Source of the DNA: Escherichia coli
GTDB lineage: Bacteria; Pseudomonadota; Gammaproteobacteria; Enterobacterales; Enterobacteriaceae
Length of the DNA: 967 bases
NCBI RefSeq assembly: GCF_003334385.1
Contig: NZ_QOWN01000140.1
Strand: one strand, 5' to 3'
Shown: positions 1 to 967 of the stretch, in pieces
How positions within the stretch are numbered: the first letter of the stretch is position 1
Layout of the letters: each line of letters opens with the position of its first letter
The notes under the pieces: generated by a model
The model's input: the letters and a program-made list of their open reading frames with translations, nothing else
Databases searched by the model: none
Told to the model about the DNA's origin: nothing
Position numbers and translations under genes: made by a program

Positions 1-84
1 CTGGTATTTGGCCTGCTGACGTACCTGACAAACCTTTATTTCAAGATTAAAGAAGATAAGCGCAAGGCTGCGAGAGGTGAATAA
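1..84 (+). CDS. S: 3' end of a phage holin, phage 21 S-type pinholin (class II holin); 5' part lies upstream of the window
   Basis: Frame 1 is open from position 1 and translates to [27 protein letters not shown] before the TAA at 82..84. A hydrophobic stretch followed by a highly basic tail is typical of a holin transmembrane domain 2 plus cytoplasmic C-terminus. From memory it closely matches the C-terminus of phage 21 S (…[22 protein letters not shown]). The stop overlaps the start of the downstream endolysin (TAATG). Confidence 0.8.
72..78 (+). promoter_or_regulatory. Putative ribosome-binding site for R, inside the 3' end of S
   Basis: The purine-rich GAGAGGT ends about 5 nt upstream of the R ATG at 84. 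It lies within the S coding region, and the stop/start overlap TAATG suggests translational coupling. Confidence 0.4.
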
Positions 85-581
85 TGCCTCCATCATTACG
101 AAAAGCCGTTGCTGCTGCTATTGGTGGCGGAGCAATTGCTATAGCATCAGTGTTAATTACTGGCCCAAGTGGTAACGATGGTCTGGAGGGTGTCAGCTAC
201 ATACCATACAAAGATATTGTTGGTGTATGGACTGTATGTCACGGGCATACAGGAAAAGACATCATGCTCGGTAAAACGTATACCAAAGCAGAATGCAAAG
301 CACTCTTGAACAAAGACCTTGCCACTGTCGCCAGACAAATTAACCCGTACATCAAAGTCGATATACCGGAAACAACGCGCGGCGCTCTTTACTCATTCGT
401 TTACAACGTGGGTGCTGGCAATTTCAGAACATCGACGCTTCTTCGCAAAATAAACCAGGGCGATATCAAAGGCGCATGTGATCAGCTACGTCGCTGGACA
501 TATGCTGGCGGTAAGCAATGGAAAGGTCTCATGACTCGTCGTGAGATTGAGCGTGAAATCTGTTTGTGGGGTCAGCAATGA
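84..581 (+). CDS. R: SAR (signal-anchor-release) endolysin, T4-lysozyme-like muramidase (glycoside hydrolase family 24), phage 21 R-type
   Basis: Complete 165-aa ORF in the provided track. The N-terminus MPPSLRK is followed by a Gly/Ala-rich weakly hydrophobic segment ([20 protein letters not shown], residues 8-27), the hallmark of a SAR domain. The lysozyme catalytic triad is in its canonical spacing: E35 (gag 186..188), D44 (gat 213..215), T50 (act 231..233). From memory the protein is near-identical to phage 21 R. It sits directly after a holin and before Rz/Rz1. Confidence 0.95.
105..164 (+). other. SAR domain of the endolysin (residues 8-27), a releasable N-terminal transmembrane segment
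   Basis: [20 protein letters not shown] is rich in Gly and Ala and only weakly hydrophobic, as expected for a segment that inserts in the membrane and is released on depolarisation. It contains no cysteine. Confidence 0.8.
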
Positions 582-967
582 ACAGAGTAACCGCGATTAT
601 CTCCGCTCTGGTTATCTGCATCATCGTCTGCCTGTCATGGGCTGTTAATCATTACCGTGATAACGCCATTACCTACAAAGCCCAGCGCGACAAAAATGCC
701 AGAGAACTGAAGCTGGCGAACGCGGCAATTACTGACATGCAGATGCGTCAGCGTGATGTTGCTGCGCTCGATGCAAAATACACGAAGGAGTTAGCTGATG
801 CGAAAGCTGAAAATGATGCTCTGCGTGATGATGTTGCCGCTGGTCGTCGTCGGTTGCACATCAAAGCAGTCTGTCAGTCAGTGCGTGAAGCCACCACCGC
901 CTCCGGCGTGGATAATGCAGCCTCCCCCCGACTGGCAGACACCGCTGAACGGGATTATTTCACCCTC
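578..967 (+). CDS. Rz: i-spanin Rz (inner-membrane spanin subunit), 3' end truncated by the window edge
   Basis: ATG at 578..580 overlaps the R stop (ATGA). Frame 2 is open to the end of the window and translates to [130 protein letters not shown]. It has an N-terminal transmembrane segment (residues ~4-24, type II topology), then a charged helical, coiled-coil-like periplasmic region, and a Cys at residue 99 matching the lambda Rz periplasmic cysteine. It is absent from the ORF track, presumably because no stop codon falls inside the window. Confidence 0.92.
784..790 (+). promoter_or_regulatory. Shine-Dalgarno sequence for Rz1, embedded within the Rz coding sequence
   Basis: GAAGGAG is a near-consensus SD, 7 nt upstream of the Rz1 ATG (798). 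The same bases encode K-E in the Rz frame. Confidence 0.65.
798..967 (+). CDS. Rz1: o-spanin Rz1 (outer-membrane lipoprotein spanin subunit), embedded in the +1 frame of Rz; 3' end truncated by the window edge
   Basis: ATG at 798..800 is preceded by a strong Shine-Dalgarno GAAGGAG (784..790) with a 7-nt spacer. Frame 3 translates to [56 protein letters not shown]. This is a signal peptide with a lipobox V-V-G-C (Cys20 at 855..857) followed by a proline-rich mature region, diagnostic of Rz1. The gene lies wholly inside Rz in a different frame, the classic embedded spanin architecture. Confidence 0.9.
846..857 (+). other. Rz1 lipobox (V-V-G-C), signal peptidase II site with Cys20 as the lipidated residue
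   Basis: The Rz1 signal peptide [19 protein letters not shown] ends in VVG followed by Cys, fitting the lipobox consensus [LVI][ASTVI][GAS]C. The +2 residue is Thr, not Asp, consistent with outer-membrane sorting. Confidence 0.75.

Follow-up and report, generated by a model that had tools for sequence, protein, structure and literature searches.

The endolysin of phage 21, R21, is secreted and sits inactive on the inner membrane through an N-terminal TMD (PMC6139136). Upon triggering, S21-68 forms heptameric pinholes of ∼2 nm, some 10^3 in number, and the membrane is depolarized; exit of the SAR domain from the bilayer then lets R21 refold and attack the peptidoglycan (PMC6139136). The Rz/Rz1 spanin complex is required for breaching the outer membrane (PMC6139136), and PMC9239132 likewise treats this pathway of pinholin and SAR endolysin in phage 21. 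For DLP12, over-expression of the essD-ybcS-rzpD/rzoD operon leads to lysis, and the lysis operon has also been proposed to serve the host by contributing to the production of vesicles and the turnover of peptidoglycan (PMC7918800).

Here we analyze a stretch of Escherichia coli DNA of 967 nt, which we refer to as the window. With a probability of about 95%, in our view, the window represents part of a late-operon lysis cassette from a lambdoid prophage of E. coli, in the form found in phage 21 and DLP12. As judged by sequence comparison, this form is the combination of an S21-type pinholin, an R21-type SAR endolysin and a lambda-type embedded spanin, Rz/Rz1. The gene cluster has been described before, is very widespread and can be explained in full, in agreement with the initial annotation, which had called it known rather than novel; near-identical cassettes of the phage 21/DLP12 type exist, and our searches found no extra gene or RNA. 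Its value as a discovery is small, as it belongs to the best-characterized lysis systems, with structures solved and a mechanism worked out.

Organization of the lysis genes

The window is 100% identical to positions 1268288-1269254 of the E. coli SCU-104 chromosome, where essD, rrrD and rzpD are annotated. SCU-104 is the one 100% match in a megablast search of complete E. coli genomes, and many further records match at 99.6-99.8%. We used the SCU-104 locus (L001) as the source of full gene lengths, and coordinates within it are marked accordingly below.

Four reading frames lie on the plus strand of the window. Its first 84 positions translate as the 3′-terminal part of S (essD), the pinholin gene, with codons 45-71 followed by the TAA stop at 82-84. 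The gene for the SAR endolysin R (rrrD), a GH24 lysozyme, is a complete open reading frame of 165 aa at 84-581. The i-spanin gene Rz (rzpD) enters at 578 and runs to 967 with codons 1-130 of 153, and the o-spanin gene Rz1 (rzoD) occupies 798-967 with codons 1-56 of 60, read in the +1 frame inside Rz. The frames are tightly joined: the S stop codon and the R start codon (ATG, 84-86) have one base in common, and the R stop and Rz start overlap in the sequence ATGA (578-581). Ribosome-binding sites are present in the cassette. The order S, R, Rz, Rz1 and the overlapping arrangement are thus as the initial annotation had described them, and every base of the window falls inside one of the four frames, leaving, as it had also stated, no sequence unaccounted for. 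Its description of the cassette as complete does not hold for the window, which cuts the cassette at both ends: relative to the full genes in L001, 39% of S, 100% of R, 84% of Rz and 93% of Rz1 are present. The first 44 codons of S lie upstream of the window, and the last 23 codons of Rz and the last 4 of Rz1 lie beyond its downstream edge. In the SCU-104 genome the cassette is complete.

Endolysin and pinholin

R matches the Pfam family PF00959 (Phage_lysozyme) over residues 34-156 with an E-value of 1.5e-45 and is 99.4% identical in amino acid sequence to the R protein of phage 21, M98T being the sole change. Among solved structures, R matches 4ZPU (RrrD) and 3HDE and 3HDF (both R21) with E-values of 1e-95 to 1e-112, at about 1e-111 for 4ZPU and 3HDE, so that structures for R at 99% identity or more already exist. 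In PHROG, R falls into an endolysin family. The proposal that the 165-aa protein is a GH24 SAR endolysin is therefore supported by the family match, by the phage 21 alignment and by the three structures.

The predicted SAR domain of R comprises residues 8-27 (positions 105-164, plus strand) and coincides with the hydrophobicity maximum of the protein, a 19-residue window over residues 8-26 with a mean of 2.11. Thirteen of its 20 residues are Ala (7), Gly (4), Ser (1) or Thr (1), the basic stretch MPPSLRK precedes it, and its sequence is identical to that of R21. At the sequence level, this pairing of an N-terminal basic stretch with a segment rich in Ala, Gly, Ser and Thr is the SAR signature by the criteria used in PMC9239132. 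A regular-expression search for the motif E-X8-D-X5-T, the canonical lysozyme triad (PMC9239132), returned a single occurrence in R, beginning at residue 35 and giving the predicted catalytic triad E35-X8-D44-X5-T50 (186-233, plus strand). Release from the membrane and activation upon depolarization have been demonstrated experimentally for R21 (PMC6139136), and we infer that they carry over to R, which is one residue (M98T) apart from it.

The S residues inside the window make up the last part of TMD2 plus the charged C-terminal tail, whereas the dual start, TMD1 and most of TMD2 lie upstream. Since the window holds only this 27-codon tail, the pinholin label rests on the genomic context. The full gene, annotated essD, occupies L001 11869-12084 and encodes 71 aa, and the full protein is 85.9% identical to S21-71 of phage 21 (61 of 71 residues); within the window, 23 of the 27 S residues are identical to S21. 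S matches holin families of PHROG with E-values of 1.5e-37 and 1.7e-33. The dual-start motif MKSM, with Met1 and Met4, is found outside the window at L001 11869-11880 and would give an antiholin of 71 aa and a holin of 68 aa, the same two products, antiholin and pinholin, that the phage 21 record annotates. In the hydrophobicity profile, values exceed 1.0 only in windows starting at residues 30-43, which correspond to TMD2; the TMD1 region is rich in Gly, Ala and Ser and stays below the 1.0 threshold, as would be expected if it were a SAR-type TMD. The 10 substitutions among the 71 residues of S relative to S21 include W27L and Q30K, which are in or adjoin TMD1, and as S differs from S21 to this extent, the timing of lysis could differ.

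Spanins

The full Rz protein matches PHROG 13, "Rz-like spanin", with an E-value of 1.2e-79. Its N-terminal TMD is predicted at residues 5-23 (590-646, plus strand), at a hydrophobicity maximum of 2.63, and its periplasmic cysteines are Cys99 and Cys152. Rz1 matches PHROG 3198 (Rz-like spanin; E = 3.7e-30) and is preceded by the Shine-Dalgarno sequence AAGGAG at 785-790 on the plus strand. Residues 17-20 of Rz1 read VVGC (846-857, plus strand), in agreement with the lipobox consensus [LVI][ASTVI][GAS]C (PMC6139136), and Cys20 is the predicted lipoylated residue. The mature part of the protein contains 10 Pro among its 40 residues, as well as Cys29. In L001, Rz1 lies wholly inside Rz, between 0.48 and 0.87 of the length of the latter. 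Typically, an embedded o-spanin begins about 0.4-0.5 of the way along the i-spanin and finishes at about 0.9-1 of its length (PMC6139136), so that the end of Rz1 falls slightly short of the typical range.

Comparison with phage 21, lambda and DLP12

As the phage 21 reference we took the curated record OL657228, in which the antiholin/pinholin, SAR endolysin, i-spanin and o-spanin are annotated. Phage 21 has the same four genes with the same overlaps, and S of the present locus retains the dual start at M1 and M4. DNA identity to phage 21 amounts to 78% in the S tail, 97.8% in R, 98.6% in the part that is Rz only and 100% in the Rz/Rz1 overlap. The 18 mismatches of the S tail are clustered at positions 3-63 of the window, a distribution that suggests a recombination (mosaic) junction near the S/R boundary.

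The comparison with the phage 21 and lambda proteins to which the initial annotation had pointed yields the mosaic pattern that a phage 21 variant should show. Rz is 98.0% identical to its phage 21 counterpart and 99.3% to that of lambda; for Rz1 the corresponding values are 100% and 98.3%. The gene order S-R-Rz/Rz1-bor is also common to lambda and this locus. In contrast, forced global alignments of S and R with their lambda counterparts score negative, and identity is as low as 21.6% for S and 20.4% for R. The lambda holin is a protein of 107 aa with three TMDs that makes large holes, and lambda R is a transglycosylase; neither is related to the S and R described here. Because S and R match phage 21 and are unrelated to lambda S and R, the cassette represents the phage 21 variant of the lambdoid module, as had been claimed.

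For the DLP12 type, the genome of strain BHUCD01 (4.64 Mb; locus L003), presumably K-12-like to judge from its size and gene layout, stands in for DLP12 of E. coli K-12. Its layout is quuD, IS5 beside a porin gene, essD, rrrD, rzpD, bor, ybcV, nohD and appY. It differs from the window at 2 of 967 nt, both of them synonymous third-position changes in R, and its EssD (WP_000839596.1), RrrD (WP_001135280.1) and RzpD (WP_001082739.1) carry accessions that are also those of SCU-104. Both genomes have the same neighbors: quuD upstream of the cassette, a porin gene in the Q-S interval and bor/iss on the downstream side. The prophage of the DLP12-type genome is defective, IS5 adjoining the porin gene and the terminase gene being truncated, whereas in SCU-104 the porin gene is uninterrupted and the set of head and tail genes is full.

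Prophage context

The genes flanking the cassette in SCU-104 are phage genes, which agrees with the placement of the window in the late region of a lambdoid prophage by the initial annotation. The gene for the Q-type antiterminator, quuD, lies at L001 9626-10009, 1.86 kb upstream of S, and is itself preceded by repressor-like and replication genes, the nin region and rusA. Of the two upstream elements that had been anticipated, Q is thus present, whereas the late promoter was not located: a simple consensus scan for sigma-70-like promoters between quuD and essD returned none. Toxin cargo had been considered possible between Q and S. What occupies this position in SCU-104 is an intact gene on the minus strand, antisense to the late operon, for an OmpC-family porin of 360 aa (L001 10198-11280; 515 bits against the NCBIfam OmpC subfamily model, whose cut-off is 484). 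In prophages of this type, the cargo between Q and S is a porin gene and not a toxin gene. In phage 21, two tRNA genes are found between the late promoter and S, where the SCU-104 prophage has the antisense porin gene instead. An AT-rich spacer of 588 nt (L001 11281-11868; 33% GC) with no annotated gene separates the porin gene from S. The late transcript would need to traverse both the antisense porin gene and this spacer before reaching S.

Directly downstream of Rz, as in lambda and phage 21, lies the iss/bor serum-resistance lipoprotein gene (L001 13071-13364, minus strand). It is followed by a region of inverted repeats and then by nohD and the terminase, portal, capsid and tail genes. 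With this content, the SCU-104 locus is apparently a full lambdoid prophage. The inverted-repeat region, at L001 13894-14006 just before nohD (14031), has 25-nt arms, AGAAAGGAAACGACAGGTGCTGAAA and TTTTGGCCTCTGTCGTTTCCTTTCT, while a related third copy occupies 13894-13906. These repeats may correspond to the R sites of lambda cosB, to which the small terminase subunit binds, and would then mark a lambda-type cos region.

Proposed mechanism

We infer the mechanism at this locus from the near-identity of its protein sequences to experimentally characterized proteins of phage 21 and lambda. Antitermination by Q (QuuD) would give rise to the late transcripts, from which the four proteins would be made out of their tightly coupled, overlapping frames. 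Sec would export the endolysin, and the weakly hydrophobic, Gly/Ala-rich SAR domain would keep R inactive at the inner membrane. Meanwhile, the pinholin would build up in the inner membrane until, at a programmed time, some 1000 heptameric pinholes (∼2 nm) form and the proton-motive force collapses. Upon depolarization, the SAR domain would exit the bilayer, and the lysozyme would refold into its active form, with E35, D44 and T50 as its predicted catalytic residues, and degrade the peptidoglycan. Rz in the inner membrane and the outer-membrane lipoprotein Rz1 would then disrupt the outer membrane, probably by fusing the inner and outer membranes, and the progeny would be freed.

Alternative explanations

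The alternative that we weigh most seriously, while regarding it as unlikely, is that the host has domesticated these genes and expresses them weakly, for cell-wall turnover or the control of outer-membrane vesicles in place of, or in addition to, phage release, as proposed for the defective prophage DLP12 of K-12. The identical accessions of EssD, RrrD and RzpD in the genome with the DLP12-type layout are consistent with this possibility, as is the near-ubiquity of the cassette, which has related DNA in 5186 of 5426 complete E. coli genomes by megablast. Furthermore, the lysis module of DLP12 is both conserved and transcribed, and its deletion raises vesicle production 3.6-fold (PMC7918800). 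Against domestication at the present locus stands the prophage of SCU-104, which looks full, with repressor, replication, Q, terminase, portal, capsid and tail genes; because it does, ordinary phage lysis is the primary role of the cassette. A role that benefits the host is a secondary layer on known genes and does not give them another identity. It is a little less likely still that the essD-type S allele, with its 10 substitutions and its place at the mosaic junction beside an R-Rz-Rz1 block otherwise like that of phage 21, confers a different lysis time, or supports low-level, non-lethal expression to the benefit of the host even from an intact prophage; the benefit, if this were true, would be in cell-wall turnover or vesicle control.

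The near-identity of Rz and Rz1 to the lambda spanins, together with the common gene order, would also fit a canonical lambda-type cassette, in which a large-hole holin frees a soluble cytoplasmic transglycosylase. This reading has virtually no probability left, as it is refuted by the phage 21 and lambda protein alignments: the scores against lambda S and R amount to no homology, R has an N-terminal SAR segment and the PF00959 domain, and S is a 71-aa protein of phage 21 sequence. Scarcely more probable, and highly improbable in itself, is an additional, undescribed gene or RNA hidden in the window, such as the antisense open reading frame at 748-864. This minus-strand frame of 38 aa, inside Rz, matches phrog_35444, a family of unknown function, with an E-value of 1.3e-11, yet the match is limited to positions 31-65 of the 90-position profile. 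The frame is bounded by stops on both sides, spans 41 codons from stop to stop and has TTG as its listed start, and we rejected it as a gene. The simplest reading is that phrog_35444 is probably a family of over-called frames antisense to Rz. The other four of the five alternative-frame and antisense open reading frames scanned have no PHROG match.

Searches for RNA and regulatory elements also argue against a hidden feature in the window, where Rfam, tRNA and inverted-repeat searches were empty. Promoter and terminator scans of the window gave nothing convincing, and promoter-like sites are fewer than in shuffled sequence. The one direct repeat is a 12-nt pair at 754 and 829 that is most likely due to chance. 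In the wider region, L001 9500-14200, Rfam at permissive E-values returned no family, and a tRNA scan found no tRNA gene. Two sub-threshold miRNA-like Rfam matches both sit, on both strands, on the inverted repeat at 13894-14006, outside the window. Nothing observed is at odds with a phage 21/DLP12-type lysis cassette as the reading of the window.

Distribution and annotation

Full-length megablast matches with an E-value of 0 number in the hundreds among phage records and in the thousands among E. coli genomes, which goes far past what chance could produce. At least 80% of the query is covered by one place in 3613 E. coli genomes, with a median of three places per genome. The 553 phage records that match the window in megablast include phages 21 and 434, Stx-converting phages and many lambdoid isolates.

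None of S, R, Rz and Rz1 has an NCBIfam model at cut-off; RefSeq nevertheless names these proteins. Rz1 (rzoD) is left unannotated by RefSeq (PGAP) in both E. coli records, where it is intact (L001 12798-12980; L003 6798-6980). The value of the analysis for annotation lies in a confident labeling of the window and in the embedded rzoD/Rz1 that is absent from RefSeq in these two records. In the feature lists of three phage records, LR597643.1, PP925837.1 and PV189405.1, a spanin and a holin are named at the match, and no endolysin. The third feature there is labeled "Phage tail fiber protein" in LR597643.1 and "hypothetical protein" in PP925837.1 and PV189405.1, and is in each case probably a mislabeled endolysin gene.
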